Positions 15,120-64,000 of a stretch of DNA of 64,000 nt are shown piece after piece. Source of the DNA: Marsupella aquatica (taxonomy: Eukaryota; Plantae; Marchantiophyta). The notes below the pieces were generated by a model that was given only the letters and a program-made list of their open reading frames with translations, was not told the DNA's origin and did not search any database. Within the stretch, counting starts at the first letter, position 1; every line of letters starts with the position of its first letter. The position numbers and the translations under genes are program-made. The stretch spans positions 8,019,539 to 8,083,538 of the forward strand of contig OZ316896.1 in assembly GCA_973895155.1 (NCBI GenBank), written 5' to 3'.

Positions 15120-18100
15120 TGTGACGCCGCCGGTACGGCGGTTAATGAGTGATTCAGTCTAACTGCGCTCGGCACGCGCGTTAGGTGGGTCTTAGGCCGC
15201 TATTATTAGCATAACGACAGTATTTAGGTAATCATTAGGGGTAGGACATCATTAGGCAATAAGGGGGACTTCAGGTTTGGGCTGGCGGCGGGTCGCTATT
15301 TGCACACTCGGGTTACGAGCGTGGAAGGGCCCATCCCTCGGGTCCGTATAACAAACTTAAGGAAGCGGCCACTGACGCACGCTGACTCAGACCGGCGGAG
15401 TGGCCGGTACACCACAAGCGTGAGCGGTTCAGCCTATGGGCGTCAAGGAGACGTCGGGGATCGACAAGCCCTCAAAGTATAAAAGGGGAGCCAACCCTTT
15501 GTAGTGCACCAATCCATCAGTCCGCGCGCCAGCTTCGACCCTAGCTCTCCCGTTCTCTCTAGGTCGCCACTACTATCTCCTCTGAATGTCGCACACGATC
15601 CTCTCCAGCTCAGCCATTCGATTCTGGATGCAGTTCCTATCTACCGGAAGGCACTTGGTCGATTCATTGAAACACGCCAACCCGCGCCGATACGAAATCG
15701 AACGCGAATACGAGAGAGCCATCCGCCTAGCAGGACGATACCACTACGTCCTTAACTTTGACTACCCATCTCAGAGCGAGCTTTATCGACCAGCAGAGGT
15801 ATCTGGGTACTTCTTCAACGGAGACAAATATATCGGGTTCTGGGAAGCATTGCTTCGGCTTCCGGACGAGGTCTTCAACATCCCGGGTACAATCGACCTG
15901 CAGTGACATCACTTTGACCACATCCCTGCCCGGGTTCGGGCTGTCATTAACGGCGAGTCCAGTACCAACCGTTCGACAAGGGCGTCCGCACTCGCTTCGG
16001 AGAACTTCTACCAGCACCTGCAGAGCTTCATGGGAACTCGGCCATCAACCAACATGACCAACTTAGCCGTGCCCGTACCCGTACCCGTGCCCATGCAACC
16101 CCAGCCTCAACCTTAGGCTCAGCTTCAGCTTCAGCCTCAGCCGCAGCCTAGCCAAACCCCACCACCTATCACCCAGCCAGCATAGGTACGCTCCGTCATC
16201 AACGCTGTGGATCTTAGCGATGACGACGAGGCTACCCCACCCTTGACCAGGCGGCCCAGAGGAACAAGCGCTCGGGGGGCCGACACTATATCGTCCCCAC
16301 CCCCTGCTCTGACCCCAGGAGCGGCCCCAACAGACAACATGGTGACCGTGGCTGCCCCGGGCCCGTTACCAACGGTAGTGGCCCTCCCCAGGCCCGATCG
16401 GGAGGATGGGGAAGTATCACCTTCCCCGAGTCAGTCACGGGGAAAGAAGAGGAAGGAATCCGCCACTGCATCCGGGTTACCATTGGCCACGGTAGCCGTA
16501 GCCAAGGTGACGATGCACCGCATGGGGGAAAACGTTCACAGCAACATCCTCCATCCCAAGCATGCGGTGTACCTGAAGACTCAGGGATTTGAGCACCTCG
16601 CCTCTCTCCCCTGGAACACTTGCAGGTACTACGGGGAGGACATGACAGAATTCGTCAAGAATTATGACGACGTATGTCAACAGACTCGGCTGCGGGGAAG
16701 GAATATGTCCCTCATAGAAGAACGGCTCAAGATGATCTTCGGGTTACCCGAAGGTGACCATCGAGTCAAATCACGGGCTCCCGGGGGCAAGGGAGCCAAG
16801 TACCAATCTTCAAGTTTTCCCCCAGATGGAGCAGTGGACAACGGGTTCGTGATGAAAACCTGCCTCATCCCCGAGATAGCTGAGCGACTGGAGTTCCAGA
16901 GGTACGCCCTCCACATGATGGAACCCCGGGGGGAGATCTCCACCGCCCAGGTTATCCAGGTCGAGAACTATCGACCTAGGAGGTGGGCGTCGTACTTCAC
17001 TAAGAAATTCCATGAAGAGATGGAGCGGCGAAGGAAGACGCGTACATTGGCGGGAAGGCGTATTTCGCTAGCCACATCGAAATCATTCTTGAGTGGTACG
17101 CCCGGTTTGATCGACGAACCCTTCCCCGCATCAACGTTACAAAGCTGGTCCCAGCTAGGTGGGTTTTTCCGGCATTGGAGAGATGGCCCCAACCCGAGGC
17201 CCAAAGTCCAGTGGACACGCCAGCTTCACCCACCCCACCTCCACAAATAGCTGTAATCGTAACCGAGGAGGCGTCGGAGGGGTCGGTCATCGCAACCGTT
17301 GATGCGACCCAACTAGCCGGGCTAAGTACAAAAGTTGGTACGGCAGAGGTCTTACCCGAACCCGGGTCTCCCAAGGACCCACTGATGGCAATTCCAAAGA
17401 ACCGGACATTGCTGCAGGAGGACACTCCAGCCCCTTCCAACGTTATGTCCCCAGGGCTGGACGTCATTGCCCCGGCCCCTGGGCGTGTTGACGTCTGCCC
17501 GTGCCCAAATCCGGATAGGCACAACTTGGACCACCCAGAACTCTTCGTACAGGGTACGTTTCTGAACGGGCTTCTGGGAGATTTCTCTCATCAAATTGCC
17601 CGGGATACCGGGGAGTTCATGGCCCGGAAGGTAGCCTGTTTCTTCAATCAGGAGTTGGTTGCCGTAGTAAAGGCAGGTCGGGCCCAGTCGGAGGCCCTTC
17701 AGAGGATAGAGCAGTACCGGGTGGAGTCCGTGTACCTAAAGAACGAAGTGGCGGCTCAAGAGGCTGAGCTTCTGCAACTACGACCCAAGGTTGTAGCCGC
17801 CGATGAGTTGTTAGCAAAGGCGCACGCTCTTACCGCCCTAGCCGAACAGGCCAAAGCTAGAAACGAGGCCGAGATTACACGACTCTGGACCCAGATTGAC
17901 AGTTTGAAGAAACAAGTTGTCACCTGGCAGAAAGACCTGGAGGAGGCCGAGGAGCGAGCCCAGCGGGACACGGCGGAGATAGCCACGCTGCAGGCCAAGA
18001 TAGTGCGGCTCCAAACCGAGGCCGAGAAGCAGGATCAGCTGGCGGCTAAACTTACGAGCGATGCCCAGCAGCTGAAGGAGGCATGTCAGGAGGCAGTAGA

Positions 18101-18150
18101 GGAGACGGACGCGGCGAGGTGAGAGAACGAATCTCTGCTGGACCAGGTCA
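15120..18150 (+). mobile_element. 3'-truncated copy of the 4-kb protein-coding LTR (same family as 49281-53258)
   Basis: Starts TGTGACGCCGCCGG and is colinear with 49281-~52280; similarity ends at about 18150. Confidence 0.9.
15586..18122 (+). pseudogene. LTR-internal gene: unknown N-terminal domain, plant retrotransposon accessory domain (Transposase_32-like), coiled coil
   Basis: ORFs 15586 and 16207 are in frame across stops; frameshift near 17030 into the frame of 17175-18122; GFEHLASLPW...EFVKNYD...LRGR...IFGLP; TATAAAA at 15478. Confidence 0.65.
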
Positions 18151-18523
18151 ATTCCAGAACCCATTTTTGCCAAGGATGGCCGACTCCTTCCGCGCCGGCC
18201 CGCGTGAAAAACTTGTGGACGTCTTGGACGGTGTCAGGGGAATCTTTAGTTCTTGGGAAGCACCGAGCTCTTGTTTTTCCTATCTTGGAAGAAACCTTTC
18301 CAAAATACGTCCTTTCTCACCTCACATTACCCTTGCGATCCCCTTTGTCGATCAATTTCTCTCACCGTTATCCTCTAAAATATCTCTCACAGCCTTTGTC
18401 CCACTCTACGATGAGCGGCTTCCTCACACTAAGCCTCGAATCGGCCTATCCTCTTTCCACATAACTTACTTCCCAAGTCAAGTCATAGATTGCAATTTCC
18501 AACGAATCCTACAATTAGACAAG

Positions 18524-31753: not shown

Positions 31754-32073
31754 CCCATGGAATTTATTCTTGATTTTTGGGAGGAATCAGTGTCATATAG
31801 ACCTGATTGACAGTCAAGAGATGCTCGTTGAGCAAATTGCCAATGAGATTTAGTGGACCTATGGGAGGCCCTAAATCCACACCATTGTCTTTGGCAGCAT
31901 TCAGTGGTCTAATTGTTGGACCTGATGATTTGATTGAGGGTAATGCGCATGCAGCAGATGTTCCACCATTGGAGGAGTCTCATGAGGAGCACATCATGCG
32001 AGGATTACCTGTTGGTAGTGTTGTGTCACCAGTGTGGGGCACTGCACATGCCTTGCCATAGGCAGCAGCACGA

Positions 32074-33072
32074 TTGGTACATGATGCATGGCGTCATGCT
32101 TTTACACCACAGTCAGGAGCAGAGCAGTATCTTGCAGATGGACCTGTGACTCTTTCACCATTGGATACCACTCCTATTGCTTGGCAATATCCACAAGAGG
32201 GTATTTGTTTGTTGGATCTTTTTGGTGGGATTAGCATTGGATTGGCTGCTATCACTGGATTGGCTGCACGGAGGGTCTCATTGCGACATGTGGCTATGTT
32301 GGTGGATAGATATCCACAGTTGCTGCCAATGGATGCTGTTCGTGGTTATCAGCATGCACTACCTGCTGATATTTCATTGCTGGGGGCGGATCATCTACAT
32401 CATGTTGGCCCCATTGATTTGGTGATTGCTGGTTGGCCATGTCAGGGCCAATCTAGAGCTGGCGTTGGGCATGGACTTCATGATCCACGCTCTGCATTGT
32501 TTTGGGAGATGTTACGGGTGCTGCGTCATCTCCAGCTACATCAGACACAGCCTCCAACATACATTTTGGAGAATGTGCCATTGTTAGGTGATGATCGTAG
32601 TCGGATTGTTGCCAGTGTTTACCAGGTGAGGTCTTGGATTGGACCTGCTGTGTTATTGGATGCTGCACGTGTGGGTTCTCGTGCACATCGTCCATGCTTG
32701 TGGTGGACTAATTTTGATCCCATGTGAGGTGCTGAAGCGCGCATTTGACAGTATTCCACGCTCACCAGCCTTAGTGGTGGATGATATTTTGGATCCAGAG
32801 CGTCGTGCACAGGGTGTGACCCACCTTGATCGTCCTCCATTGGCAATGGTCAATGCAGTTGGGCGCCCACGTTGTGCATTACCCACTCTTGTAAGCCACT
32901 CTACTTCATATGCATTCAGAGCAGGTGGCCCTGGACTTGTGTGGGACACAGCTCTCCAGCAGTTAGTGGAACCTACTGCTGATGAGAGAGAGCGTGCTAT
33001 GGGATTTTTGACTGGCACCACTGCTGTTGCCTCTGTGTCAGAGGGTTTGCGGCGCCAGGTTCTTGGTCAAGC
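32074..33072 (+). pseudogene. DNMT3-like C5-cytosine DNA methyltransferase domain within pol
   Basis: Motif I LLDLFGGISIG, IV IAGWPCQ, VI ILENV, VIII SRAHRPCLWWTN, IX-X ERERAMGF...RRQVLGQA; frameshift near 32720. Confidence 0.9.
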
Positions 33073-33166
33073 TGGACAGATTGTTGAGCAAGAAGGGATT
33101 GCTCAATCTACTGCTAAATAGCAATCATCGGCTATCTCTTCTACCCTACAAAGAGATATTAGGGAT

Positions 33167-34275
33167 TTGGTGGAGAGTTGGAAACCACAGCTTGGCCCTA
33201 AGTTGACAGGGGAGGAGAGACGTCGCATGCATCGATTCCTGAAGAGTTACTGGAATTGTTTTGCATTTAGCATGAAGGATTTGGGGACATTAAAGGGTCC
33301 TGGTATTCAGATTGAATTGGCTAGTGATGCGCCAATCTTTCGTAGGCCATACCATTACAGTGACATGGAGAGAGCTCTGATTCAAAGCAGAACTCAAGAT
33401 TTGTTGGAGGCTAGATTGGTGGAGATTTCATATGGGGAGTATGCATCTGCCACAGTGATGCCAGCCAAGAAGGATGTGCATGGCAATTACAGAGATAGGC
33501 GCATGTGTGGTGATTACAGACCCATTAATCGCCAGACAAAATCTGATAGATATGCCATGCCCACACCTGAGGAGATCTTTGATGCTGTGGGGTATGCAAA
33601 GGTTTTCAGTTCATTGGATCTGAGGGCAGGGTACCATCAGCTTCCAATTAGGCATGCTGACAGGTCCAAGACAGCATTCTGGGGGATTGATTCTTATGGC
33701 AAAAATTGTTTGTATCAGTGGTTATTCTTACCATTTGGGTTGAAGAATGCACCAACTGAGTTCCAGAGAGTCATGGATCGAATCCTTGCAGGTTTGGATT
33801 TTGTCAGATGTTATATTGATGATATTTTGGTCTATTCTTCTACTGTGGAAGAACATCAGTAGCACTTGCAGACTGTGTTAGAGAGATTGAGAGCACATGG
33901 GTTGAAGCTCCATCCTAGCAAGTGTAAGTTCTTCCAAGACCAGATTGAGTATTTGGGCCACACTATATACCCAGGGGAATTGGGTGTACAGCAGACTAAA
34001 GTGGAGGCCATTACACAGATTCCTTGTCCTATTGATGTGAGTAGAGTTCGTGCATTCTTGGGATTGGCGAGCTATTACAGGAGGTATGTTAAAGGATTTA
34101 GCCAGCTTGCTAAACCTTGACCATACTCACTAAGTTGGATCAGGAATGGATTTGGGGTGATGACCAGGAGCATGCCTTTAAGGAGTTGAAGCAAAGGTTG
34201 GCATCATCCCCTATTTTGAGAAGACCCATTTCAGCTACACACTGATTGGAGTGGAGTAGGACTTGGAGCAGTGTT
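33167..34275 (+). pseudogene. Gypsy reverse transcriptase and start of RNase H
   Basis: RMCGDYRPIN, FSSLDLRAGYHQ, LPFGLKNAP, YIDD, VRAFLGLASYYRRYV. Confidence 0.95.
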
Positions 34276-34649
34276 GGGGTACACAACATCATCAGTTATT
34301 AGTGGCTGATAACTGACATCAGTTGCTGATATCAGTTATCTCAAAAATTTTAGAATCTCAGTTGAGGAGTTGAGAAGGGCCTTCGAACTTCCGCTCATCT
34401 CAGCTGGGCAGCCGAGGTTGATTCAATCTCGGCTGACCTCGGCGAGATGGGCGTACGGACCAAAAATAAAATAAAAAATAAAAAAACCAAAAAAATTTCC
34501 CGAAAAAAAAACATTTTGAAAAAAAAAAATTGAAATTTTTTTCCCCATCTCAGCTGGCCTCGCCGAGATGGGGCGTACGGACCGAAAAAAAACGTGGAAA
34601 AAAAAAACCAAAAATTTTCCCAAAAAAAAATTTGAAACAAAAATTTTTG
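34276..34649. other. Foreign A-tract-rich fragment replacing most of the RNase H (probable truncated MITE-like insertion)
   Basis: Abrupt loss of pol similarity; starts GGGGTACACAAC; duplicated CATCTCAGCTGG...CGAGATGGGCGTACGGACC. Confidence 0.55.
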
Positions 34650-36050
34650 GATTCTATTGTTGGCAGTGTTGATGCCAAAGAACGTGACAGGGTTCTACAG
34701 AGAGCCAAGAGGTTTCGATGGGAGGGAAACCATCTTTTGAGAGTACTGCATGATGGTAGGGTGTTGGTGGTACCAAAACCATCACAACGAGTACATTTGG
34801 TGCAACATGCACACGAGGAGTTGGGGCACTTTGGTGTGAAGCGCACTTATAGCTTGCTACAGGCACAGTATTGGTGGCGTGGTATGCACACTCATGTCCA
34901 ACAGTTGATAGCTAAGTGTGTGGTATGTGATAGAGTGAGGGCATCATTTAATGCTCCCACTCCCCAGTTGCATCCGTTGCCGATCATGGGTTTGGGATAT
35001 CGTTGGAGTTTGGATTTTGCTGGTCCATTATCTCTCACCCAACGTCATAATCGGTATGTTTTGGTCATGGTGGAGCACTTCTCCAAGTGGATTGAGCTAG
35101 TGGCGTTGCCCGATAAAGCTAGTGGAGGAGTTGCTGCTACATTTTTGGATCGTGTACTTAGTCATTTTGGAGCACCAGCTGAGGTGTTGACTGATCAGGG
35201 AACTGAGTTCCGTGGAGAGTTTGAGATTTTGTGTGAACAAGCTCTGATTGATCATCGTACTACCTCTTGTGATCATCTTGAGGCAGATGGATTAGCTGAG
35301 AGAGTTGTGCAAACTGTGAAGAGAGGATTGCGTAAGTATGGCTTGCAGGTTGGTCATTTGGGAGATTGGGATCTCCAGCTATCTTGGTTAGCTATGGGCT
35401 ACCGTTTCAGTCGGCAAGCATCACTTGCATCCTTCTCACCTTACTTTTTGCTCTATGGTAGAGAGCCAGATTTGCCAGCAGCTATTCATCGTCATGCTGC
35501 ACCAGTTGTGAACTTGGATGATCCTGATGTTTGAGTCAAGGTGTGTTCAGAGAGAGCACGGGTATTTCAGAGAGTGATGCCCATGGCTTTTGACAACCTT
35601 GCCATTGCCCAACATTGTGATACTTTGAGGTATGCCACTATTCGTGGAGGAGGTTACCGTGCAAGCATTCGACGATTTCATCCTGGTGATTATGTTTATT
35701 TACAGCAGACAGCACCCACGACACTTGATGTGACCGCAGGCCAGACAATCTTACGTGTGCGTGAAGTGTTGCCTTCTGGTGTCCTGATGTTGGAGGGAAG
35801 CGATGGTATGGTTTGGAAGGATCATGTGCGCAACTGTGCACCATGTCACCTTCCCAACATTGATGGTACAGTAGATCCAAGCTTGGCACATGTTCGTGCT
35901 GGCTTGAAATGTATGTTGTGTGGATCTGCTCAGGGAGCAGCTACTATGTTGATTTGTGATAAGTGTTCTAGAGGATGGCACATGTCATGTTTGACACCAC
36001 CATTGCAGGTGATTCCTAGTGGATCATGGTTGTGTCCTCAGTGTCGGTGA
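34650..36050 (+). pseudogene. Integrase (HHCC, DDE) with C-terminal PHD finger
   Basis: HEELGH...CVVC, WSLDFAGP, LTDQGTEF, GLAERVV; PHD CMLC...ICDKC...WHMSC...WLCPQC; one stop at 35532-35534. Confidence 0.93.
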
Positions 36051-48839: not shown

Positions 48840-49280
48840 GTTATAATCATATAAGAGAGCATCAAGTCCAATGGATTTTTAAGGCTTCACAACTTAGTTG
48901 ATGAAAAATGGGGAGTGAGGGGAGAGAGCCCCTCTCCTCTTTATTTATAGTGCTCACACCTCAAGCACACGGATCAAGCATGGCACACGGATGGAAGCCA
49001 TGTGTCACATATCCAAGGCAAGTAAGTGTGCTAGTACTGTAGTTACGTGAGTGGAGCAACTATAGGCAGTACACTGTAGCATGCACACTGTAGATCGTAC
49101 ACTATAACATGCACACTGTAGATCGTACACTGTAGCATGCATACTATAGATCGTACACTGTAGATTGTACACTATAGCATGCACACTGTAGATCATACAC
49201 TGTAGATCGTACATTGTAGCATGCATACTATAGATCGTACACTGTAGCATGCACACTGTAAGTCTTGCACTGTAGCATGC

Positions 49281-52200
49281 TGTGACGCCGCCGGTACGGC
49301 GGTTAATGAGTGATTCGGTCTAACTGCGCTCGGCACGCGTGTTAGGAGTGTCTTAGACCGCTATTATTAGCATAACGATAGTATTTAGGTAATCATTATG
49401 GGTAGGATATCATTAGGCAATAAGGGGGAATTCAGGTTCGGACTGGCGGCTGGTTGCTATTCGCACACCCGGGTTACGAGCGTGGAGGGGCCCCTCCCTC
49501 GGGTCTGTATAATGAACTTAAGGAAGCGACCACTGACACGTGCTGACTCTGACCGGCGGAGTGGCCGGCACACCACAAGCGTGAGCGGTTCAGCCTATGG
49601 GCGTCGAGAAGACGTCGGGGGATCGACAAGCCCTCAAGGTATAAAAGGGGAGCCAACCCTTTGTAGTGCACCAGTCCATCAGTCCACGCGCCAGCTTCGA
49701 CCCCAGCTCTCTCGTTCGCTCTAAGTCGCCACTACTATCTCCTTTGAATGTCGCACACGATCCTCTCCAGCTCGGCCATTCGATTCTGGACGCGGTTCCT
49801 ATCTACCGGAAGGCACTTGGCCGACTCATTGAAACACGCCAACCCGCGCCGATACGAAATCGAACGCGAGTACGAGTGAGCCATCCGCCTAGCAGGACAA
49901 CACCACTACATCCTTAACTTTGACTACCCGTCTCAGAGTGAGCTTTACCGACCAGCAGAGGTATCCGGGTACTTCTTCAACGGAGAAAAATATATCGGGT
50001 TTTGGGAAGCATTGCTTCGGCTTCCGGACGAGGTCTTCAATATCCCGGGTATGATCGACTTGCAGCGACATCACTTCGACCACATCCCTGCTCAGGTTCG
50101 GGCTATCATCAATAGCAAGTCCAGCACTACCCGATCGTCTGCACTCGCTTTGGAGAACTTCTACCAGCACCTGTAGAGCTTCACAGGAACTCGGCCAGCA
50201 ACCAACATGACCAACTCAGTCGTACCCGTACCCGTACCCGTACAACCTCAGGCTCAGCTTCAGCTTCAGCCTCAGCCGCAGCCTAGCCAAACCCCACCAC
50301 CGATCGCCCAGCCAGCACAAGTATGATCCGTCATCAACGCTGTGGATCTTAGCGATGACGACGAGGCTACCCTACCCTTGACCAGGCGGCCCAGAGGAAC
50401 AAGCGCTCAGGGGGCCGATACCATATCGTCCCCACCCCCTGCTCTGACCCCAGAAGCGGCCCCGGCAGACAACATGGTGACCGTGGCCGACCCGGGCCCG
50501 TTACTAACGGCAGTAGCACTACCCCGGCCCGATCGGGAGGATGGGGAGGTGTCACCTTCCCCAAGCCAGTCACGGGGGAAGAAGAGGAAGGAATCCGCCC
50601 CTATGTCCGGGTTACCCTTGGCCACGGTAGCCATGGCCAAGGTAACGATGCACCGCATGGGGGAAAACGTTCACAAAAACATCCTCCATCCCAAGCATGC
50701 AGTGTACCTGAAAACTCAGGGATTCGAGCACCTCGCCTCCCTCCCCTGGAACACTTGCAGGTACTACGAGGAGGACATGACAGAGTTCGTCAGGAATTAT
50801 GACGACGCGCGTCAACATACTTGGCTACGGGGAAGGAGTATGTCCCTCACGGAAGAACGGCTCAGGATGATCTTCGGGTTACCCGAAGGTGACCATCGAG
50901 TCAAATCACGGGCTCCCGGGGGCAAGGGAGCCAAGTACCAATCTTCAAGTTTTCCCCCAGAGGGAGCAGTGGACAACGGGTTCGTGATGAAAACCTGCCT
51001 CATCCCCGAGATAGCTGAGCGACTGGAGTTCCAGAGGTACGCCCTCCACATGATGGAACCCCGGGGAGAGATCTCCGCCGCCCAGGTTATCCAGGTCGAG
51101 AACTATCGACCTAGGAGGTGGGCGTCGTACTTCGCTAAGAAATTCCATGAAGAGATGGAGCGGCGAAGGAAGACGCGTACATTGGCGGGAAGGCATATTT
51201 CGCTAGCCACATCGAGATCATTCTTGAGTGGTACGCCCGGTTTGATCGACAAACCCTTCCCCGTGTCAACGTTACAAAGCTGGTCCCAGCTAGGTGGGTT
51301 TTCCCGGCCTTGGAGAGACGGCCCCAGCCCGAGGCCCGAAGTCCAGCAGACACGCCAGCTTCACCCACCCCACCTCCACAAGTAGCTGTAGTCGTAACCG
51401 AGGAGGTACCGGATGGGTCGGGTGTCGCAACCGTTGATGCGACCCAACAGGCCGGGCTAAGTACAGAAGTCGGTACGGCGGAGGTCTTACCCGAGCCCGG
51501 TTCTCCCAAAGACCCACCGGTGGCTATTCCGGAGAACCGGACATTGCTACAGGAGGACGCTCCAGCCCCTTCCAACGTTACGTCCCCAGGGCTGGACGTC
51601 ACTACCCCGGCCCCCGCACGTGTGGACGTCTGCCCGTGCCCAACTCCGGACAGGCACAACCTGGACCACCCGGAACTCTTCGTACCGGGTACATTTCTGA
51701 ACGGGCTTCTGGGAGATTTCTCTCATCAAATTGCCCAGGATACTGGGGAGTTCATGGCCCGGAAGGTAGCCTATTTCTTCAATCAGGAGTTGGTTGCCGC
51801 AGTAAAGGCAGGTCGGGCCCAGTCAGAGGCCCTTCAGAGGATAGAGCAGTACCGGGTGGAGTCTGTGTACCTAAAGAACAAAGTTGCGGCTCAAGAGGCT
51901 GAGCTTCGGCAACTACGACCCAAGGTTGCAGCCGCCGATGAGTTGTTAGCAAAGGCGCACGCTCTTACCGCCCTAGCCAAACAGGCCAAAGCTGGGAACA
52001 AAGCCGAGATTACACGACTCTGGAACCAGATTGACAGTTTGAAGAATCAAACTGTCACCTGGCAGAAAGACCTGGAGGAGGCCGAGGAATGGCCCAGCGG
52101 GACATGGCGGAGATAGCCACGCTGCAGGCCGAGGTGGCGCGGCTCCAAACCGAGGCCGAGAAGCAGGACCAGCTGGCGGATAAACTGACAAGTGACGCCC

Positions 52201-53258
52201 AGCAGTTGGAGTAGGCTTGTCAGGAGGCAGCAGAGGAGACGGACACGGCAAGGCGAGAGAACGAATCTCTGCTGGACCAGGTCCAACTCCTCAAAGCGGA
52301 CAATGACAGGCTCTGAAGGCAGCGGGATGGCCGCTCCCATTCAGGTGGCTGTGGCAAGCGTGCCAGGCATTAGCGGCGGAGTAGGAATAGAGTAGGATTA
52401 GGACTAGCTTAGTCAGGCTCTTGGGACAGGCACCTGCCTCAGGTACAGCATCGCTGTCGTGCTGTCCAGCCTGCATAGATTAGGATCTTTTAATAAGACA
52501 CAGCCGTTTCCGGCCTGACTGTCAGCTTAGTTAGGACCGTAGTTAGTGAATCTTCGGCGAGAGGACACCCCGTCCCTCGGCCCTTAGTATTTAGTGCACC
52601 CCCTTGGTAGAGACGGGGGGGTTTTTAGTTGCAAAGTTGGGCGTCCGCGGTATGTGCGGGGAGTCCCGACCTCTGGGAATGAAAGAGTACCAAGGGGAGG
52701 GGGTAGGACTAAGCTCGTCGGGCGAGTGCGGAGCCGGGCTACGTTGTAGTGTGCACCCTTGGCCTTGAACCAGTTCATTCCGGGGCTGTTGGGTCAACTA
52801 AGTGTACGCATATGTTCCCTTTGTAGTAAAATCCTTTCCCATCATTTTCCTTCGTGTAAATCGAGATTGTATGCATGTGCGCGTGTATGTGTGTGGGTTT
52901 CTCGTATATGCAGGCCGAACGCACTACCCGAGACGTGCATAGGGTGCACCCTGCGGGTAAGTGGTTGCGAGCACGGGTTGAGGACCTGTATCATCGAATC
53001 CGGATCGAAGGCGAACAGCTCGAAGGCTTAGAAGCCCTTAAGCCGGGGTCGATCCTGCTATCGACTAAGGTACGTTCCGGCGGCGGAACACAAACCATAC
53101 CTAGGAGGTGTCCGTATTTAGCAGTATGCGTACTTAGCGCTAGTTTACGAGAATAAGGTGCATTACGTGCTTCCCTTCCTGCCCAAACCCTCAGATTTAC
53201 GAGGGATATGCCCGTCTAAGCTGAAGTCTGAGTTAAGGCCGTAGCCGATGACGTGACA
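49281..53258 (+). mobile_element. 3978-bp solo LTR with 5-bp TSD CATGC, containing a long gene
   Basis: TGTGAC...GTGACA ends; CATGC at 49276-49280 and 53259-53263; no gag/pol inside. Confidence 0.88.
49748..52395 (+). pseudogene. LTR-internal gene (paralog of 15586-18122)
   Basis: ATG at 49748 is in frame with 50342-51385; same frameshift as copy 1; TATAAAA at 49640. Confidence 0.65.
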
Positions 53259-53419
53259 CATGCACACTGTAGATCGTACACTGTAGCATGCACACTGTAG
53301 GTTGTGCACTGTAGCATGTACACTATAGACTGCATATAGTGCGAGAATTCAAACTACTATCCTATACTACTAAGCTATACTTAAAAGGAACTTACTAAAC
53401 AAAGAATCCCCACGACAAC

Positions 53420-56400
53420 GTGCGAGCAACCGAGATAATTGGATTGCAAAGTCCAGACTCGGCCCTTTCCCGAATGGTCCGTGGGAATCGTGGTCAACAA
53501 GTGCTCAATTTTCCTGCAGCTCGCGGAGTTGTTGGGACTGCATGTGTGAATAGTTCACCGTTCAGAGTTCCAGATTCTCCAAGTTCTCCAGGGCGGACTG
53601 TGATTGGTTCCAGGCTCCAAGCATCGAGGAGAGGTCTTAGTGGTGTTCAGGTTATGTATAGAGAGCCACGAAGTCCAATTGTGTTTTCAGATGAGTCGAG
53701 TGGATCAGAGGACGAAGATCAGGAAGGAGATAGAGAATCCGATATCATAGCACAAGTTGTGTCTGAATGTTTAGAAGGAGCTGTAGAAGGGAATAGTTTT
53801 AGTCACCTTTTCAGTGCCCCTCTAAATGCGTCGAGGAGATCTGTGGAGGATGGTAGCTCAGCACAGAGTGATGCATCTATTTGTGAGGTACCTGAAGGAG
53901 AGAAAAATGCCAATATTCTCATAGGATTTCAGTCTATAGAGAAGTCAAATGAGCCAAGTAAAAAAGATAGAGATCGAATTACTAGGAAAGACAATGTGAT
54001 AAATGATAAATTGAATAGAAACAAAATGAAAGAAATTTATAAGTATCCATGTTGTGATAATTTTTGTCTGAGGAATTTGGGTCTGCAGGATGTGACGAAA
54101 CAACACACATATTACTATGGGCTATCCTACCAAGAGAAGAACGTACTTCTAAGAGGATGTATGAAGGGTGGGCATGCTGGTGCAAGTGGTTACTCAGTTA
54201 GTGGTAGATCCTTTTGTCGGAGTGGTTTTAAGAAATTATTTTCCCTAGGAAATAATCGTCTCCAAAAAATCTTGAAGAACATGTTTTCTCGGATACAGAT
54301 CGATACATTTTGTAGAGAAAAATCAACCGCACATCTTGGTCTTGTTCAATGGCTGGATGATTTTTTTACCACAAATGTAGAGAGTCTCCCCAACAAGGAT
54401 ATCTTTCATTTACCTAACAATTGGACAAAAACAGAAGTTTTTGACGCCTTCCAGTCTGAAACTCTAATGCGCCAAGAACAAGGCGTGACATATTCATGGT
54501 TTGTTCGCATTTTGAACAAGGAGTTTCCTCGCGTGCGCATCCCCAAAAGGAGTCATTTCTCCACCTGCGCCCCATGTACTGAATTCAAAGCACTTCGTGA
54601 TAAGGCAACACTCGAAGCAGAAAAGAGTAAGTTTCTAAACCCGTGTGTTACTCCCGATAATTTTATCGGGTTGAGTATTCCCATGCTTCTTCTTTGGTAA
54701 TGTGTGTGAATATATCGTTTGAACAGTTTGAATACTTATCCCCGATAATTTTATCGGGTTGAGTATTCCCATGCTTCTTCTTTGGTAATGTGTGAATATA
54801 TTGTTTGAATACTTATCCCGATAAATTTATCGCTGTCACGGTTTAACATTATGGTTATCAAATCAAGTGTTTGAATACTGAACCCGATAAATTTATCGCT
54901 GTCAGACCAGCAAAGTTCTAAACGTTTTGATTATTGTAGGAAAATTCTCAACATTGCTAAACGAGCATCGGAAGGCACAAGCAGTGGAGAGGGAGAAGTT
55001 AGCAAAGCAGCAGAGCAAATGTTACAAGAGTCCGGAGAAATATTTGGGCATCTGTATTGATGGAATGGATCAAAAGAAGATAGAGTTACCTCATTTCATT
55101 CGGTGTCCAAAGAATATGGATGAGAAGTATTTCATCCCTGTACACGTAGTGGGTTGTTTGATCTTCAACAAACAATTGAGTTCAAATGTTTTTTTGAACT
55201 ATCCAAATATTCACAATGATAGCAACCTGACCATCCACGTTATTCAGCATATTCTGAATACCTGGGAAGGTCCGTTCCCTCCAGTGCTTTACCTCCAGCT
55301 TGATAACATTGCTCGGGAAAACAAGAATAAATATTTTATGGCATATTTGAACATGTTGGTGGAGATAGGTGTTTTCCAAAAAATAAAGGTTGGTTTTCTG
55401 TTGGTTGGGCACACCCATGACCAAATTGATCAAATGTTTAGCAAGTTTTCTTCAAAATTGAACAAGCGAAAAGCTTTTTGATTGGACACTCTTTCCGCAA
55501 TCATAGAGGAATCCTACAATCCTACGGCAAAAATATTTTTTGTCCATGAGGTTGCCGATTTCAAAAAATTTGTGTCTGACAAGGATCAAGCAAATGACAA
55601 GGATATGGATGGTCAAGTTCTGTGTACTCTCCACGGCATAAGTGCTCAGAAACAATTTCGGATTACCAGAGTACTCAAAGATGGGAGTGCTCAGTCTGTC
55701 TTCCATGCCAAACATCTTTCCACGACAACAGATTGGGGGGGGGCCCGTGGAATTTGTTTGGTAGTACATTCCTTCATCTGGAATGTGGGTTGCACCACAA
55801 ATGGCATTGAAGTCGGCCACGGGAGCGACAGGAGACAATGATGATCAAGAGAATGATACTGAGGAACAAGACGAGCGGGCGGCGCAAAATCATTTTTCCA
55901 CTCTTCAAAAGTATCGGAGAGCAATTGAAGATGGATTCAATTACTTTGACAACAAAGATCGGCTATGGTGGGGTCGTTTTTTTGACAAACAAAAAGAAGT
56001 GATTCAACACCACCTGAAACCTGCACAATGGAGTTTTGATTGGAGTTGGCCCAAGGTAAACGTACAGAGAGAACCTACGACCAATCCTATGGAAGCAGCA
56101 ATGGAACCTATCTTGGTTGATAAAATAGCGGGTGTGAGGACAGTCATGTATTCCGGAAGTCAGAGAAAAGTCACGGAAATTGGAGACTTCAAGGATCTAG
56201 AGGTGAATACTAAATTTTCAATGATATGTGTAGCAGCCCATCAGGATCCAAAGGGAAGACCATTCTGGATGGCAAAAGTGATTAAGTTTAGAGTTTAGGG
56301 TCTTGCCCAGTGACAAAACACCCGGGCCTGACGGTATGACAGCAGAGGTTTACAGAGCATGTTGGGGTTTTATTGGTTAGGATTTAGTGGATATGATACA

Positions 56401-59383
56401 GGAATTTTGGCTTACGGGTGCCCTCGATGCTGATATTTGTGAAGGAATTGTTAAATTCATACCCAAGAAACCGGACAAACGTTTGTTAAGTGACTGGCGC
56501 CATTGACAATGCTAAATACGATATACAAGCTAATTGCCAAGATCCTTGCCTTGCGATTAAAACCAATCCTACACCTGATAATAAGTCCGCAACAAACTGG
56601 ATTTATCCCTGGACGCCACATCTTAGAAAATATTTCCCTTGCTTGGCTTGCCTGTGATTGGGTTCACAAAAGGAGACGAGAGGCACTGTTTCTGAAATTA
56701 GACTTTGATAAGGCTTTTGACCGTGTGTCGCATGAATATATATGGGAATGTATGCAGTTGTTAGGGATAAGCGGACGTTTCATCTCACTGGTTAGAGCGT
56801 TGTTGGCTCAGGCATCTTCACGTGCCTTGGTGAATGGTTTACTATCTAACATGTTTGAGCTCAAGCGTGGGGTAAGACAGGGCTGCCCTTTATCACCGTT
56901 GCTGTTTGTTATCTTCACGCAGCCACTTATGGATTTTCTTGATGCAGAGCTAGCAGCGGGTAGACTGTGTGGCTTGCAGATCTCGCTTGATCTCACTATT
57001 TGCTACAGGTTGTTTGCGGATGATGTGGGGATGTTTATCCCTGCAACTGAGAATGCTTTTGAGGAAGCAACAACTGCTCTGGACTGTTATGAGAAGGCTA
57101 GCGGTGCTCGACTGAATTTGAAGAAATCAGTTGTGATTCCATTGGCTATGGAGGAGGTCCCTGTTTGGCTGAATAACACGGGCTGCCATATCAGTCAAAG
57201 GGGGGAGATGCAAAAATATCTTGGTGCACCATTTGGGGTGGGCTTGAGCCGGAGCAACTGCACAAATTCTGCCTCGACAAAATTTGTGCCAGGCTTGCTG
57301 TTTGGTCCAACAAGTTGCTTTCCTTTACTGGCCGATCATTACTAGTTAAACAGGTGCTGCTTGCTATTCCGATCTACCATGTTATGTATTGCAAGGCGTC
57401 TGCTGGTCTAGCCAAGAAGCTTATTGCTCTCAGTAGAGAGTTTCTATGGGGATACAATGACTCAGGAGGGAAGAAGGTCCCGTTGGTGGCTTGGGACAGG
57501 ATGGCACTGCCACGAGTGGAGGGGGGATTGGGATTTCGGGATTTCCGCAGCCACTCTGATGCCCTGCTCTCTCAATGGTTCACTAAGGCACTGAACTCGC
57601 CAGAACTGGAATGGTCCAAGATGTTGGCGGCCAATCTGGGATTGTTGGGGTGGATGAACTACAAGGTTATTAGGAGAAATGGATACTCCTTCCAGGACCA
57701 GTTGCTTTTATGTACACCTCGTTCCTTTAGTGGGCTCCCCTACACTACGGGTCTCTGGCGATGCTGGGAGCTAGTGAGAGCCCATCTATCCTTTGAGCCT
57801 GGCCGGGGGGGGCCGCCTGCCCGGTGGAGCATCACTAACACACTCAGATGTATGGTGGGCTTTCATTCTCTTCCTAATTCGGCCATTACGGACATTGCAA
57901 CGATCTGTGGCCGGCTGGGAATGAGATCGATTGGTGATGGTTGGTCGGCGGAGGAAGGATGTTGGAAGGATGTTGGAAGGACCTCCCGCTTAGATGGAGC
58001 AACATGCGTGGATTCTCTGCAGAGCATCAATTGCTTGCACGGAAGTTCTTGGAAAGTATATGGAGCGCTTCACACTGCCGGTCAGAGTACTTCCTGTATG
58101 CCAAACAGTGGAGGTGGACAGATAGACTTGAACCATTGAAGGATTTCAGAATTCAGAACTGCAGAGTGTATGACTTCTTGCGGCCCAAGACCTCAAATCA
58201 CAAACGCCTGAATAGGATCTGGTCTCTTACCCAAGAGGAGAGAGGATGGAATGAGAGCTGGTCCAGACTGTGGAGATCGGATTTACCAACCAGAGGCAAG
58301 ACCTTTATATGGAGGATCATTGTGGGGGGCTTGTTCACTAGGGCCCGTGCACTTAGATTAGAGGTGAGCAATGGTGACTGCAAGTTGTGCAGCAGACGGT
58401 TGGAAACCATCCCTCACCTTTTTTTCCAATGTGCACATGCTGTCTATTGTTGGCGTCTCTGTTTGACCTCGTTGAGTGCGCTGGATATGCCAATTGGACA
58501 AGGGCTGATGGCCCTTTTAGATGCAGCCTGTGGGAGGGAGCCGATCCGAGTGGCGCAACTTTTTGTCTTGCACCAAATTCTCTGGAGGCTCTGGATTGGG
58601 AGAAACACTCACATGTTTCAGACGGGGGGGAGACGTGTGTTTGACCTGGGACTTGTACTGTCAGAGGCAGTGGAAAACTTATTCGCTGCTGGTCGGCGTT
58701 GCCCCCCGGGCAAGAAGTGCACTCGCCTGCTGCGCGCCAAATCATGTATCGATGGGCTTCGCAAGAGCTGGCTTGGCAGCGGGGGGATCAGTTTCACTTC
58801 CGCTGGGTGACTTTGATTTTGCAGTGATGTTTGAACGTTGAGACCAATGGATGTTTGGTTCTGGGGGCACTGATGCCCTCAAGCTGGTTGTGAGTTTGTG
58901 TGGTGTGGGTTTGGGTTGCTGGTAGGTGTCTCCGGGGAGAGTAATTCCTTGCCTTAGGTGGATTTGGGTTGGTTTTTTGAGGTTTGGCCCTCTGTTCTTT
59001 CTTGGCTGCCTCCCGGGAAACCTGGTCTGTTTGTGCGCCCTCCCCGTGGGGCTTTTCACGGCGGAACTGAATTGATTTATTTATGGCTACCATTCCAAGG
59101 AAAAGTGATTGAGATTCTCACAAAAATTAACAACATCCCCGAGCGAATTAAAATCACTTGGTATGCAATGGATTCGGAAGAGGAGTCTGCAATTGAAGGT
59201 AGATATTATCCGGAGAAAGAGGCTTCGTCTAACAAAGTACTGGAGGATGAACTGTCCCTAGCAGAAACTGCAGTTTATGCGTATAATTTTGCGTTATTGG
59301 CAAATAGTACTCTACCTGTACAAACAAGACGAATCATTCAAAATGCAATGATGGACACTGTAGTCGTTGATAGTAGAAGCTAG
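53420..59383 (+). pseudogene. Sola-like (DUF7869-type) DDE transposase with a C-terminal BAH/Tudor-like domain; split by a LINE
   Basis: CCDNFC, FSTCAPC, ICIDGMDQ, LYLQLDNIARENKN, FLLVGHTHDQIDQMFS; in-frame intron 54627-54939; removing the LINE restores PFWMAKVIEILTK...ITWY. Confidence 0.8.
56284..59100 (+). mobile_element. 5'-truncated L1-clade LINE (RT + zf-RVT) with 10-bp TSD AAAAGTGATT
   Basis: KTPGPDG, LKLDFDKAFD, GVRQGCPLSP, LFADD, KYLG, CKLC...ETIPHLFFQC; TSD at 56274-56283 and 59101-59110. Confidence 0.93.
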
Positions 59384-59834
59384 TGTAAAGGTTTTAAGTT
59401 ATAATGGTTATCGTTAAGCTGGTTATCATTCCCATGAGGATGGTCGCAATCGTGAACATCTGGGACTAAGTATGTTGTTCTCCGAAGCTATAATTATATC
59501 TTTTTTTGAATTGATTGTAATGACTAACTAGCTAGAGCGTGGAATGCAAAGTCTGATAATATTATCGACAACTCCATTCCCCAGCTAGAACATCGTGACA
59601 AATAAGGGAGTGGAATAGCTAGAGCGTGGAATGCAAAGTCCGATAAGTCCCCAGCTAGAACACCGTGACAAACAAGGGAGTAGAATGCAATGTCTGATAA
59701 ATTTATTGGGTTCAAACGTAATTGCGATAACTTTATCATACTCCATTCTCCGAATATTGAGAAGTGGGACTGACATAATCTAACATAACCTAAACTAACC
59801 TAACCTAACTATCATACAACCAGATAACAATTTC

Positions 59835-62800
59835 CTAATCCAGTAACATGTCATTGAGATCATCCTCATTAGGCATTCTGGGAGGTTCTTCGGCTTCTTC
59901 TTCATTCTCGACCTTCTTCATGACTTCAACAGTGAAAGTCAAAGTCCCCAATGTTCCCAATTGGCCTCCAATCGGTGATTGAATCTCTAGACCTTCGCCG
60001 CCTTGCCCTTCAATCTGTGCTTCATCATATAAATTCCAGTTTGACTCTAGAGTCATAATCCGATGTCTCACAAAATCAATCTGTGCAGCATTTTTATCGA
60101 CCGCACAACCCTGGCAAGAATTGAGAAGAGCCGCAGCTAACATGGATCCGGTTCCGCAGCAAAGATCCATAACCCAGTCATTTTTCTCCGAGAAATGAGT
60201 AACGAACCAAGCACCCAAACCAACAGGCTTTTGGTACGGGTTCACAACATAGCCCAACGGATCAACAGACTTTTGGTTACACATGGAACCTTGATGATAT
60301 TGATGCGAGACTCATCCGGTTGGAAATTGTACATGTTCATGTTTTGGATGCCTTCCTTGCTGTAGAATCCCATCGACCAGTTTTCAAAACCCCACGCCAA
60401 TCAAGCACCGGCGGGACGCTCATGAATGTTAGTCTTCTCCCAAATTCCAGACTCAACCCCACAGTTGCACACAATCTTGAGCGCAGACATGACCATATTT
60501 TTTTGCTATAATGAATGGATCACAACAAACCTCCACTACTTAGCAGCTGTCATGTTCAAAAAACTTCTCACCATATCTACAACATCCTTTTCTATGAAGG
60601 ACACTTCATCAAACTCCGAACCAGGCGCATTAAAACCATACGGAATGTCGGCAAGAGTGTAAGGTTTTGCCTCCACAAAAGAATCCAAAATTCGAACATC
60701 CCCAACATGGAGATAGTAAGGGAAAGAATCTCCGTCAGCATTTTTCCATATTTGCTCCGCGGCTTCTCGTGCGTCCTTGCCTAGCGCCTAAAGCCGGTTG
60801 TACCGATCAATTGCAGCAAGCACAAAATTCTTGAACACATACGGGATGTCACCGGAGGGAACAATAACCTCCCCCGCCGAATTATATTGCACAGGTAGAA
60901 CAACTTTATTTTTCCGCTTTGACCCAATCTTCAGCTGTAACAAAGGTTGCACAAAATTCCAATCATAATGAAATCGCTTAACGAATACGAAAGCCGTTAA
61001 AAATCTCGGGAATGAAATGAGTTATGCAAAAATGTACTGATGGAATGGCAAGGCCGATAAAAATCTCGTGATGATTTTTGAATGGAACGAGGAATGCAAA
61101 AATCTACTAATGGAATGGCAAGGCCGATAAAAATCTTGGGGAGAGACGGATGCTTACCGCTTCGCTCAACTTCTCTGCCCATGTTCCCAGGACGGAAACA
61201 TCCGTCTCATTTGGAAACATTTCTCTGCACGTTGCCCAGTCGGGCTACCCAGATATCTGCAAGAATAATTTCTTCACCTTGGAAAGTTTTTTCAGCTTTT
61301 CCCCTTCCTTGTGCATTTGATCCAAGGTGATCACTTTCCCAATGACCCTATTCAAGAGCCGCTTAACATGCTCCTTAGTTGACTGTCCTTGAAGACCTCG
61401 AAAAGTATTTAAATTGAGGTCACCTGCAAGTTTATTCATTTTAATCTCTTTCAGCGTTAAAGGTTTAACCTTTCCCTTTGCATTTGTTGTTGCCATGATC
61501 TTTTTGGGTTGTCCCAAGACAGTCCCCTTCTCCCACATCTGGAAAACTTTCTTCTAAAGATCCCAAATTTCACCCATTCGAAAAGCAATCTGGAATGTTG
61601 GGTCATGTTTGGCCATGCTGTCACGAACACCGGGAGTGTATTGCAGCATACATTCCTGACAACAAGCTTCGCAAACATCCTTGTTTGATCCTACATCCAT
61701 TTCAACAAAGATATTGTGGCACGCACAAACTCTATCGATATGAGTCATGTTCTTCCTATACTCCTGGTCATAATTGTGCTGGAAGCCCAACTTCCGGACC
61801 TCCGACTTGGTAAGTCCTGCGTATACCCAAGCTTCCAGCTCACCATAAATCTGCTTCCCATACATTTTATACAACTCGGCCTTTGCCCGAGCACCATGAT
61901 TTCCTCCAATAATTCTATACTTCCATACTCTGGACTTTAGAATGTCCCAATCCTTGATTGTGGGACAATCCTCCGGATCCACACACAGTAGTGGGGTTTT
62001 TCCTTAGAAGAATCTTGATATTCTCCACATGCAATTAATTTGTCCACTAGTCTGATCAAAGTTCACTTCTCTCCAGCTTCATCAAAAATTAAATTGTCGA
62101 CATGCAAGAGGACAGTTGTCCTTTGAACCCTTTGCTGCATCAGCAGACTGAGCTCCGCTTTGATGGCGTCAGTCTCATACATCGAAAGAGCAGTCTCCTC
62201 CTCTTCATCAATCTAGAAAATGCCGTTTGAAATTAGATTATGAAAGAAACAACAAGATTTTTATCGGAATCCTCTTTCGTCAATAGAAAATCAAAGTTTG
62301 GTAGCACTTACCGATCGAACCTCGGCTTGTATATCTGAACGAGGCAAACGCTCATCAAGCAAAGGAGGATCCATATCGATCAGGGCTTCCACTCCTTCTA
62401 GGGCTGTGGATAAACTCCAACCTGTTCTCTTTCTCTTAACGCTAACTCCAGAACCAGATGGCCCCGATCCCTCAGATCCTCTACTCTCGCTTACATTTAT
62501 GTAAGGCGCTTCCAAAACGCCTAAACCTGCACTGGTTGCACGACCTCGACGAATGCCGCTGCCCCTTCTCCCGCCCTCAGAGGGACCAGCAAAATCTTCC
62601 ATGATGTTCCCTCTCCCTCTCCCTTTCCCCCTGCCACTTCCCTTCCCCGAACCACTTTTGGGCTCGTCCAAAGCCGTACCTCCAGCACTTTTTGCCGATG
62701 AAGCTCCACTCCCGTTAGAACCAGGCCTCTTAATAACTATTTTCCGGATGGGTCTGAATTCTTCACCTGTGAGCCTCTTGTACTCTGCGTTCACCCTTGG

Positions 62801-63217
62801 TAGCATGATGAGATCACAATCTTGGACAAACTGGCACACCCAAGCTGGGCCCATAAGATTCATTACTTTTGTTGACCTAACTTCCGCGACAAGCGCGTCT
62901 TCAAGGTAACTCTCAAGGGATTTCTCAAGAAAGTTCTCCATGGTGACAATGACAGAGGTGAATCCCTTGCCTCCACACATTGTCAAGAAACTCAGACCCT
63001 CTTTCAACACTTTTGCCTCTCCCTGGCTAATCAAGTACTCACAGATCGCCACACCAACAACGGGGCCAAACAAGAGAGTAACCTTTGCGGATTTTTGCAT
63101 CTGGACCCAAAGGATAGGAGACTCACAGTCTACCATATCCTTGGATTGTAACCTGGCGTCGCGGAAGTACCACGGTTTCTTGATGAACCCTAAAACCAAA
63201 AACCGGCATGCAAACAT
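59835..63217 (-). pseudogene. Multi-exon gene: ParB/Srx-like domain fused to a beta-class N6-adenine/N4-cytosine DNA methyltransferase
   Basis: YRIIGGNHGARA (61554-61982); LHVGDVRIL, motif IV ADIPYG (60649-60638), YQKPV, motif I VMDLCCGTGSMLAAA, AVDKN; introns 62213-62311 and 60935-61157; stops and frameshifts. Confidence 0.8.
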
Positions 63218-63481
63218 CGATACAATGAACTCAGAAAGTCCTCATTCACGTACAAGCATTAGGTCATTCCACGAGCGATACCAACTCCGATAAAATTATC
63301 GCAAACAAATATGAGCACGATATAAATTGACGGCCGAGATTACATTATCGTATGTGTCAACATCTGAAAATGAGAGCAACACCGATAAAATTATCGCAAA
63401 AGTGGTCCAAACAAAAAGTGAGCCTTCTTTAAATTGACGACCAACTGTACATGTGATAATGTGCCTAATCAATCATCCCAC

Positions 63482-63768
63482 CTCGGGGGGTTGACTATCA
63501 ACAATCTTAGGAACCACGTGCGATCCAAAATATGTATTTTTCATATAAATTAGCTAAATTTTTAAAAAGCGTAGGAAGCAAAAGAAGTTATTATAAACCT
63601 ATATTTGTAGAATATTCTCTAATATATACCTTTTATAAAGTAAAATAGATCATTTGTATTGAAAATAGAGAATATTTTTAGAATATTCCCATAATAAAAT
63701 AGGTGTGTTTATATTAGGCTAGGATCGCACGTGGTACCCCAAAATATACACTAAGTTAACCCCCCGAG
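63482..63768. mobile_element. MITE (287 bp) with 8-bp TSD CATCCCAC
   Basis: TIRs CTCGGGGGGTTGACT / AGTTAACCCCCCGAG plus inner ACCACGTGCGATCC / GGATCGCACGTGGT; TSD at 63474-63481 and 63769-63776; AT-rich core. Confidence 0.88.
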
Positions 63769-64000
63769 CATCCCACCCAAGATCAAACCACGCTACAGCA
63801 AAGCAAGAGATTAGCTTCTTGGGCCATTGGGGTATATGAGTGATCCTATGATCATAGGCCCACAGCCAATGAAAATCTGTGGCACCGGTCTCAGGATTAA
63901 CTACAACTACTGAATAGCGGCGTGACGGAACGTCACAACAGGCATTTGTGCAACACTGACACATCTCACCATTGTCAAGGACATTTGTCCATAAACAAGA

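Follow-up and report, generated by a model that had tools for sequence, protein, structure and literature searches.

Our analysis of a 64,000-nt stretch of the Marsupella aquatica genome (contig OZ316896.1, positions 8,019,539 to 8,083,538; hereafter the window) identified an array of palindromic units, built around CCGATAA-NN-TTATCGG, in the non-coding DNA of Element C, a decayed, high-copy DNA transposon extending from about 53340 to at least 63480. Element C carries two convergent genes: a DUF7869 transposase gene on the forward strand and, on the reverse strand, a three-exon gene whose product combines a ParB-like region with a DNA methylase (ParB-methylase). The sequence features considered here make the palindromes candidate docking sites of the transposon's own ParB-helix-turn-helix (HTH)/N6_N4 methylase, a reading that we hold to be about evenly balanced between right and wrong. 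Within it, the identity of the binder, the methylation target, and the benefit to the element are steps that we infer.

The motif itself is real and specific to the element. Our motif scans covered the whole window, i.e., the 10,141-bp element and the remaining 53,879 bases. Allowing up to three mismatches to the 16-bp palindrome, 15 matches were obtained in the window (expectation, 1.92; highest count in any shuffled sequence, 6), 12 of which fell within 54654-63397. At up to two mismatches, the element contained eight matches (shuffle mean, 0.025), versus none in the remaining bases. The inner core GATAA-NN-TTATC was likewise found in eight exact occurrences, all within Element C, and its half-sites gave no match in the window at any other spacer from 0 to 7. 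The initial annotation, which had described a parS-sized 16-bp palindrome in 12 copies, was therefore correct about its presence far above chance and about 12 matches (up to three mismatches) in the element, but the exact form, CCGATAANNTTATCGG, occurs only twice (54654 and 54742), and the first four coordinates listed there were one base too low. Repeat analysis further revealed that the unit is longer than 16 bp and forms a composite of about 38 bp, consisting of GAATAC or GAATGC, five bases, CCGATAA, and a 2-bp centre, often followed by the mirror image. The half-site GAAT-N7-CCGATAA, with up to one mismatch, had 12 matches in the window, every one of them in the element. At 61054, 61124, and 62253, where the initial annotation had placed palindromes, only one half-site each (CCGATAAAAATCT..) is present, and these units are not palindromic.

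The distribution of the units is confined to particular parts of the element. None of the units with up to one mismatch lies in its coding sequence; they were located in each of the three modelled introns, in the spacer of 451 bp that separates the convergent genes, and in the region upstream of the ParB-methylase gene. The introns were modelled from splice consensus, reading frame, and positions conserved in relatives, and the earlier statement that every intron contains a copy holds for the three of them (54627-54939, 60935-61157, and 62213-62311). Local tandem duplication, also proposed earlier, was borne out by repeat analysis, with six periods of 88, 66, 87, 70, 70, and 95 bp. Because such duplication multiplied several copies, the array represents about seven or eight independent sites and not 12.

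Related elements carry arrays of their own. A search of 1.84 billion representatives yielded only 66 relatives of the ParB-like open reading frame (ORF). Those with a named source are from Chara braunii, Riccia sorocarpa, Adiantum nelumboides, and Ginkgo biloba; since these are streptophyte plants, the protein family appears to belong to that group. A metagenome scan yielded five loci with the ParB domain (L001 to L005; 48-60% amino acid identity to the window), four of which (53-60% identity) have arrays: 20 sites of CCGAT-N6-ATCGG in L003 (shuffle mean, 0.155), and 12, 8, and 3 sites of GCGAGAC-NN-GTCTCGC in L001, L002, and L005, respectively (shuffle mean, 0.01 in each). No motif was found in L004, which comprises 1,086 bp of coding sequence only, and a scan of viral contigs yielded no relative. 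The positions of the relatives' arrays match those in the window, namely upstream of the gene, in both conserved introns, and downstream. In L003, the ParB-methylase gene is intact, all 20 sites lie outside its three exon ORFs (upstream, both introns, and downstream), and the two introns occupy the intron positions of the window; L001 looks alike, judging from its frames. In L002, the convergent transposase gene is represented by its tail, and the spacer contains two units; a ParB-methylase gene carried in a DNA transposon and convergent with a DUF7869 transposase gene was thus observed both in the window and in this relative.

The spacing within the unit is also shared. The GAAT box was found at exactly -19 to -16 from the centre in 10 of 24 half-sites in the window, 11 of 40 in L003, 22 of 38 in L001, 12 of 16 in L002, and 3 of 6 in L005, versus a total of five occurrences at offsets of 1 or 2 bases to either side over all loci. 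Each locus lacked the cores of the other lineages, with two exceptions: the window and L003 have CCGAT ends in common, and L005 contains a single CCGAT-N6-ATCGG match, at chance level. Sequence comparison thus indicates that geometry and positions are kept among related elements, whereas the inner cores are lineage-specific. Two further observations concern these relatives. P0006 from Chara braunii (1825 aa) contains the ParB-like and methylase module twice in tandem (two matched stretches). The ParB-like exon at L003:1864-2997 was placed beside fungal DUF3723 clusters in an Atlas feature search (score, 0.96), which we take only as a lead to a possible fungal counterpart.

The window as a whole has a eukaryotic, repeat-rich context with long terminal repeat (LTR) retroelements and a long interspersed nuclear element (LINE). 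The parts of Element C and the units within them are as follows.

53399..54626, forward strand: transposase exon 1; open frame, with a GT donor at 54627 in phase 1, read from the sequence
54627..54939, forward strand: transposase intron, GTAAGT...TTGTAG; phase 1, GT..AG, with four motif units
54654-54669, 54742-54757, 54818-54833, and 54884-54899, forward strand: the units of the transposase intron, in tandem units of 88 and 66 bp
54940..56273, forward strand: transposase exon 2 with DUF7869 (Pfam PF25273, E = 3.3e-43)
56274..59100, forward strand: LINE insertion (Pfam RVT_1 and plant-type zf-RVT) with a target duplication of 10 bp; does not belong to the element
59101..59383, forward strand: last coding part of the transposase, homologous to the convergent ORF of relative L002
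59384..59834, no strand: spacer separating the two convergent genes; it holds the units 59553-59568, 59694-59709, and 59724-59739, as well as a half unit (59629-59646)
59835..60934, reverse strand: ParB-methylase exon 3, predicted beta-class N6_N4 methylase with DIPYGF followed by VMDLCCGTGS; contains stops and frame shifts
60935..61157, reverse strand: intron B, with one-sided units at 60994-61009, 61054-61069, and 61124-61139 in a 70-bp tandem
61158..62212, reverse strand: ParB-methylase exon 2, with a ParB/Srx-like domain (GGNHGARA) and a helical HTH-like region
62213..62311, reverse strand: intron A, with a single one-sided unit at 62252-62267
62312..63217, reverse strand: ParB-methylase exon 1, with a conserved N-terminal domain of unknown fold and a Gly/Ser/Arg-rich linker
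63277..63400, no strand: upstream region of the ParB-methylase gene, containing a 95-bp tandem of two units, 63287-63302 and 63382-63397

The window copy of the element is dead: the LINE splits the transposase gene, and both genes contain stops and frame shifts. Exon 2 of the transposase is interrupted by an in-frame stop (55479-55481) and changes frame around 55740-55765; exon 2 of the ParB-methylase gene contains three in-frame stops (62063, 61554, and 61245) and is shifted in frame near 62000. The LINE is private to this copy, as contigs of other copies join 56273 to 59101 in the sequencing runs X1 (three contigs), X5 (one), and X6 (two).

Other genomic copies of the element helped to distinguish the original form of the spacer units from their decayed state. 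Multiple copies of the element family, ranging from less than 90% to more than 99% alike, were present in each of four sequencing runs from two organisms. When the contigs of the four runs were compared over 59500-59780, position 59554 was C in every compared contig (9, 11, 8, and 13 contigs in the four runs), and positions 59695 and 59707 were C in every contig covering them. With C at these three positions, the copies read CCGATAA/TTATCGG and the perfect palindrome CCGATAAATTTATCGG. The changes in the window at 59554, 59695, and 59707 are all CpG to TpG, and the degenerate spacer copies of the window are private decay. Among the genomic copies, the spacer letters of the motif differ, as does the number of units in the transposase intron, seen as loose ends and insertions in contigs. 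As a separate observation, all three inner cores (window and relatives) contain CpG and share the trinucleotide CGA, and the window has lost motif CpGs by C-to-T changes. The CpG in the cores, together with its loss in the window, hints at an interplay with host 5-methylcytosine (5mC).

The fold of the ParB-like protein was examined in a relative, P0002, which is 55% identical to the window ORF and could be modelled from a 28-sequence alignment (predicted local distance difference test [pLDDT], 84.1). The model aligned with ParB, Noc, and KorB over both domains, with Foldseek E values down to 3.2e-6. An N-terminal ParB/Srx fold is present in it, as judged against Myxococcus xanthus ParB (7bnk_B; Z, 11.2) and PadC (6ryk_B; Z, 10.5; root mean square deviation, 3.1 over 99 residues for the N-terminal domain). 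Over whole chains, 203 of 209 residues aligned with KorB (8qa9_B; Z, 8.9) and 186 of 190 with the ParB-parS complex (6t1f_B; Z, 8.9). For the methylase part, the Pfam domain PF01555 scored 21.2 bits in the window copy, below the cut-off of 26.7, and 33.6, 33.8, and 31.0 bits in relatives, above it; it was also found in 5 of 22 scanned relatives. In the translations, the catalytic motif D-[IV]-P-Y-G-F precedes LCCGTGS, the S-adenosylmethionine (SAM)-binding motif. On these features, which are seen in the relatives, the methylase part is assigned to the predicted beta-class N6/N4 DNA methyltransferases. For the conserved N-terminal domain of the ParB-methylase, the model built from three sequences was poor (pLDDT, 55.7). 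A ParB-domain profile search against PDB sequences returned a single match (E = 1.6) and nothing useful. When the exons of L003 were compared with 50,697 phage records by tblastn, the ParB exon had no match, and the methylase exon had only weak ones (29% over 36% of the query, E = 2e-5). N4-cytosine methylases of Marchantia were considered as family members and set aside, as they have TSPPY motifs and no ParB was mentioned for them.

If the palindromes are docking sites of this protein, the ParB-like protein would, as a dimer, recognize the 16-bp inner palindrome via its helical DNA-binding part, accumulate on the arrays, and methylate the DNA of its own element. Because the catalytic motif is of the D-x-P-Y type, methylation of N6-adenine is predicted. 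As a result, the element might be marked or kept open against host silencing, or its own promoter might be regulated, in a manner resembling that of VANC for VANDAL transposons. The arrays would expand through tandem duplication, and the address of each lineage would stay private because the inner core diverges.

Several observations weigh against this reading. The ParB-methylase gene of the window is a pseudogene with five in-frame stops and frame shifts, so that other copies would have to supply any activity. The transposase is an equally placed candidate reader, as its intron holds four units at a distance of 5-9 kb from the methylase gene. In the P0002 model, the DNA-binding domain alone gives weaker Z values (4.3-5.9), and the HTH_ParB match in L003 is weak (E = 8.6e-4; 19.9 bits, below the cut-off of 22.6). 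Pfam ParBc (PF02195) was found neither in the window ORFs nor in the relatives' exons at E values up to 0.01, nor in 22 family members at E values up to 0.001. The arginine-rich motif by which ParB proteins bind cytidine triphosphate (CTP) is GERRxRA; it is not kept here, where the aligned position reads GGNHGARA and is invariant in the six closest sequences. The 38-bp site is longer than any parS, the GAAT being an extra outer box. Only four relatives have DNA context, too few to detect co-variation between protein and core, and the ParB/HTH exon alignment (window, L001, L002, L003, and P0002) is too shallow to link residues to the inner core. In addition, the units are also able to fold as hairpins. 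The earlier proposal of a parS-sized site tied to the ParB-methylase thus gained support from the arrays of four relatives in matching positions, their shared geometry, and the ParB-like fold, but calls for correction as to the size of the unit, the missing CTP-binding motif, the pseudogene state of this copy, and the transposase, which could equally be the reader.

The transposase is the other candidate reader encoded by the element itself. The motifs could be transposase-binding repeats used for complex assembly or autoregulation, comparable to the multi-copy TnpA sites of En/Spm-type elements, and repeated subterminal sites, both direct and inverted, are a usual feature of large DNA transposons. 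The transposase's own intron contains four of the best copies, and the N-terminal region of the transposase is Cys-rich. We nevertheless regard this explanation as unlikely. The copies range over 54654-63397, with some in the centre (59553-59739), and do not appear to cluster towards the ends of the element; no copy with up to two mismatches was found in 53340-53660, before the transposase gene; and the arrays of the 5-kb relatives lie on both sides of the ParB-methylase gene as well as within it. Comparison of relatives cannot separate the two candidate readers, since the transposase and ParB-methylase genes travel together. A host transcription factor, e.g., of the GATA type, appears to be a quite improbable reader of sites gathered as enhancers or promoter modules, even though the core in the window contains two inverted GATAA sites and the ParB-methylase gene is closely preceded by two units. 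The initial annotation had itself raised the concerns that the motif might be common in host introns or bound by host GATA-type factors alone; the other 53.9 kb of the window contain zero copies (up to two mismatches), and the relatives show the same 38-bp geometry and GAAT with the cores GCGAGAC and CCGATC, which carry no GATA. A host GATA factor is therefore unlikely as a general reader. The majority of the copies, moreover, lie in introns and in the 3′ intergenic spacer.

The remaining explanations do not involve a reader protein. Intron-RNA hairpins or DNA cruciforms, acting for instance as precursors of small RNAs or as signals for splicing or termination, are suggested by the 42-nt units, whose mean folding energies were lower than those of shuffled sequences (-9.0 versus -3.6 kcal/mol in the window, -10.3 versus -6.2 in L003, and -16.1 in L001 and L002 versus -7.1 and -9.0, respectively). 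This seems improbable to us, as many units fold weakly (down to -4.2 kcal/mol), the one-sided units of introns A and B are unable to form a hairpin, and the L003 unit is symmetric only in its 5-bp ends, with a GAAT box that is mostly one-sided. The strictly fixed offset of a 4-bp box fits reading by a protein better. It is highly improbable that the units are tiny independent palindromic mobile elements, of a MITE-like (miniature inverted-repeat transposable element) or introner-like kind, that landed in the non-coding DNA of Element C. Such an origin would agree with a unit that is palindromic, multiplied, found only in non-coding sequence, and common to the introns, but no target duplications or discrete insert boundaries were seen, the units sit inside longer tandem repeats, and the rest of the window is free of the motif. 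Lineage-specific versions at matching positions in related elements of other organisms also oppose it, and the summed contig depth over motif bins, a poor measure, was not above that of the flanking exons.

The proposed docking of the element's own ParB-methylase on its arrays has parallels of several kinds. Red-algal Plavaka elements carry PAG3, a gene for a ParB N-terminal domain joined to a 2-oxoglutarate (2OG) oxygenase, with tandem inverted-repeat arrays adjoining the gene, and the authors proposed self-binding (Petroll et al., bioRxiv 10.1101/2025.02.11.637652). In Ectocarpus, Sola1-1_Ec32 encodes a ParB-like and DNA-methyltransferase protein on the strand opposite the transposase, and such proteins were called a possible new class of accessory proteins (Dinatale et al., PMC12477816). 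As far as these descriptions go, Element C resembles PAG3 and Sola1-1_Ec32 in having inverted-repeat arrays beside the gene and in the proposed binding and modification of the own element; as in Ectocarpus, its gene lies on the strand opposite the transposase. It differs from both, compared by description only, in its DUF7869-type transposase and in its relatives, the named ones of which come from streptophyte plants. Beyond a flanking array, the arrays here fill the ParB-methylase introns and the transposase intron, and the 38-bp geometry, the conserved GAAT box, and lineage-specific cores are not mentioned in the available parts of the accounts of PAG3 and Sola1-1_Ec32. Since ParB-domain transposon genes with inverted-repeat arrays have been published for algae, this kind of system is already known. 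Searches of a literature library for DUF7869 and for ParB-methylase transposons in plants turned up no account of this plant-lineage element, although the supplements of Petroll et al. may hold relevant element models. New are the plant-lineage DUF7869 element, the arrays inside the introns of its genes, and the conserved composite geometry with lineage-specific cores.

The placement and evolution of the units are reminiscent of the VANC system of Arabidopsis VANDAL (Mutator-like) transposons, in which VANC target motifs lie in introns and in intergenic and terminal non-coding parts, were multiplied via tandem-repeat formation, and differ between related elements (Hosaka et al. 2017, PMC5735166). 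The two systems share motifs in non-coding DNA, in tandem repeats, and with differences among relatives. From what is described there, VANC proteins contain DUF1985/DUF287, cause 5mC loss, and have no ParB or methylase domain, and their binding was shown, whereas binding in Element C is only predicted; the VANC motif is a 9-mer and not a palindrome, unlike the unit of Element C. No Pfam matches to DUF1985 or DUF287 were found in the ORFs of the element. The VANC system is thus a functional analogue and not a relative. Compared with the bacterial ParB-parS, Noc-NBS, and KorB-OB systems, the likeness lies in the fold of the N-terminal ParB/Srx domain and perhaps of the following helical domain, in the 16-bp inner palindrome, and in sites in the promoter region; with KorB and Noc, Element C also shares multiple dispersed sites on one replicon. 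Unlike the bacterial ParB systems, it has no ParA partner or partition role, a methylase fusion, and the extra outer box. The domain combination of the Element C protein is also that of ParB-methyltransferase fusions described in phages (ParB-Tls loci), and methylases fused to ParB-HTH have been listed for chlorophytes and chytrids (Iyer et al. 2016, PMC4738411).

Other features of the window were recorded alongside Element C. Within 32062-36047, an ORF with a Pfam match to C-5 cytosine DNA methylase (E = 4.7e-12) is followed directly, on its own strand, by reverse transcriptase, integrase, and PHD-finger ORFs; this may be a retroelement with its own cytosine methylase. A 3-kb direct repeat (15120-18155 and 49281-52290; 91.6% identity, 34 kb apart) could represent two copies of one repeat or the LTRs of a very large element. 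The 14-bp satellite CATGCACACTGTAG (49056-49280 and 53259-53329) flanks the block just left of Element C and has a very high summed contig depth in the runs. The AT-rich segment 63476-63782 is bracketed by inverted repeats (arms, 63510-63526 and 63722-63738) and looks like a MITE. The summed depth rises about 30-fold from 63276 onward, and 63376-63796 is skipped by one contig in each of two runs.

Genes for ParB-methylases and ParB-oxygenases on eukaryotic transposons have been described only recently, and their self-binding is still a hypothesis without a defined site. The Element C family supplies candidate sites, with three natural specificity variants in one geometry, by which that hypothesis becomes directly testable. 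A broader and more doubtful model, which we put forward tentatively, is that plant-lineage transposons possess a phage-derived, private epigenetic addressing system, in which the fusion protein would read the lineage-specific core and methylate at or near GAAT at its fixed offset, and the resulting N6-methyladenine (6mA) would cover all non-coding parts of the element and steer or escape host silencing. Should this broader model be true, the CCGATAA, CCGATC.., and GCGAGAC variants would be natural, mutually orthogonal pairs of protein and site with which DNA methylation could be targeted in eukaryotes. If docking by the element's own ParB-methylase is true, the VANC principle, in which a transposon's own protein acts on sites scattered in its own non-coding DNA, would be extended to a new protein class and to DNA methylation.

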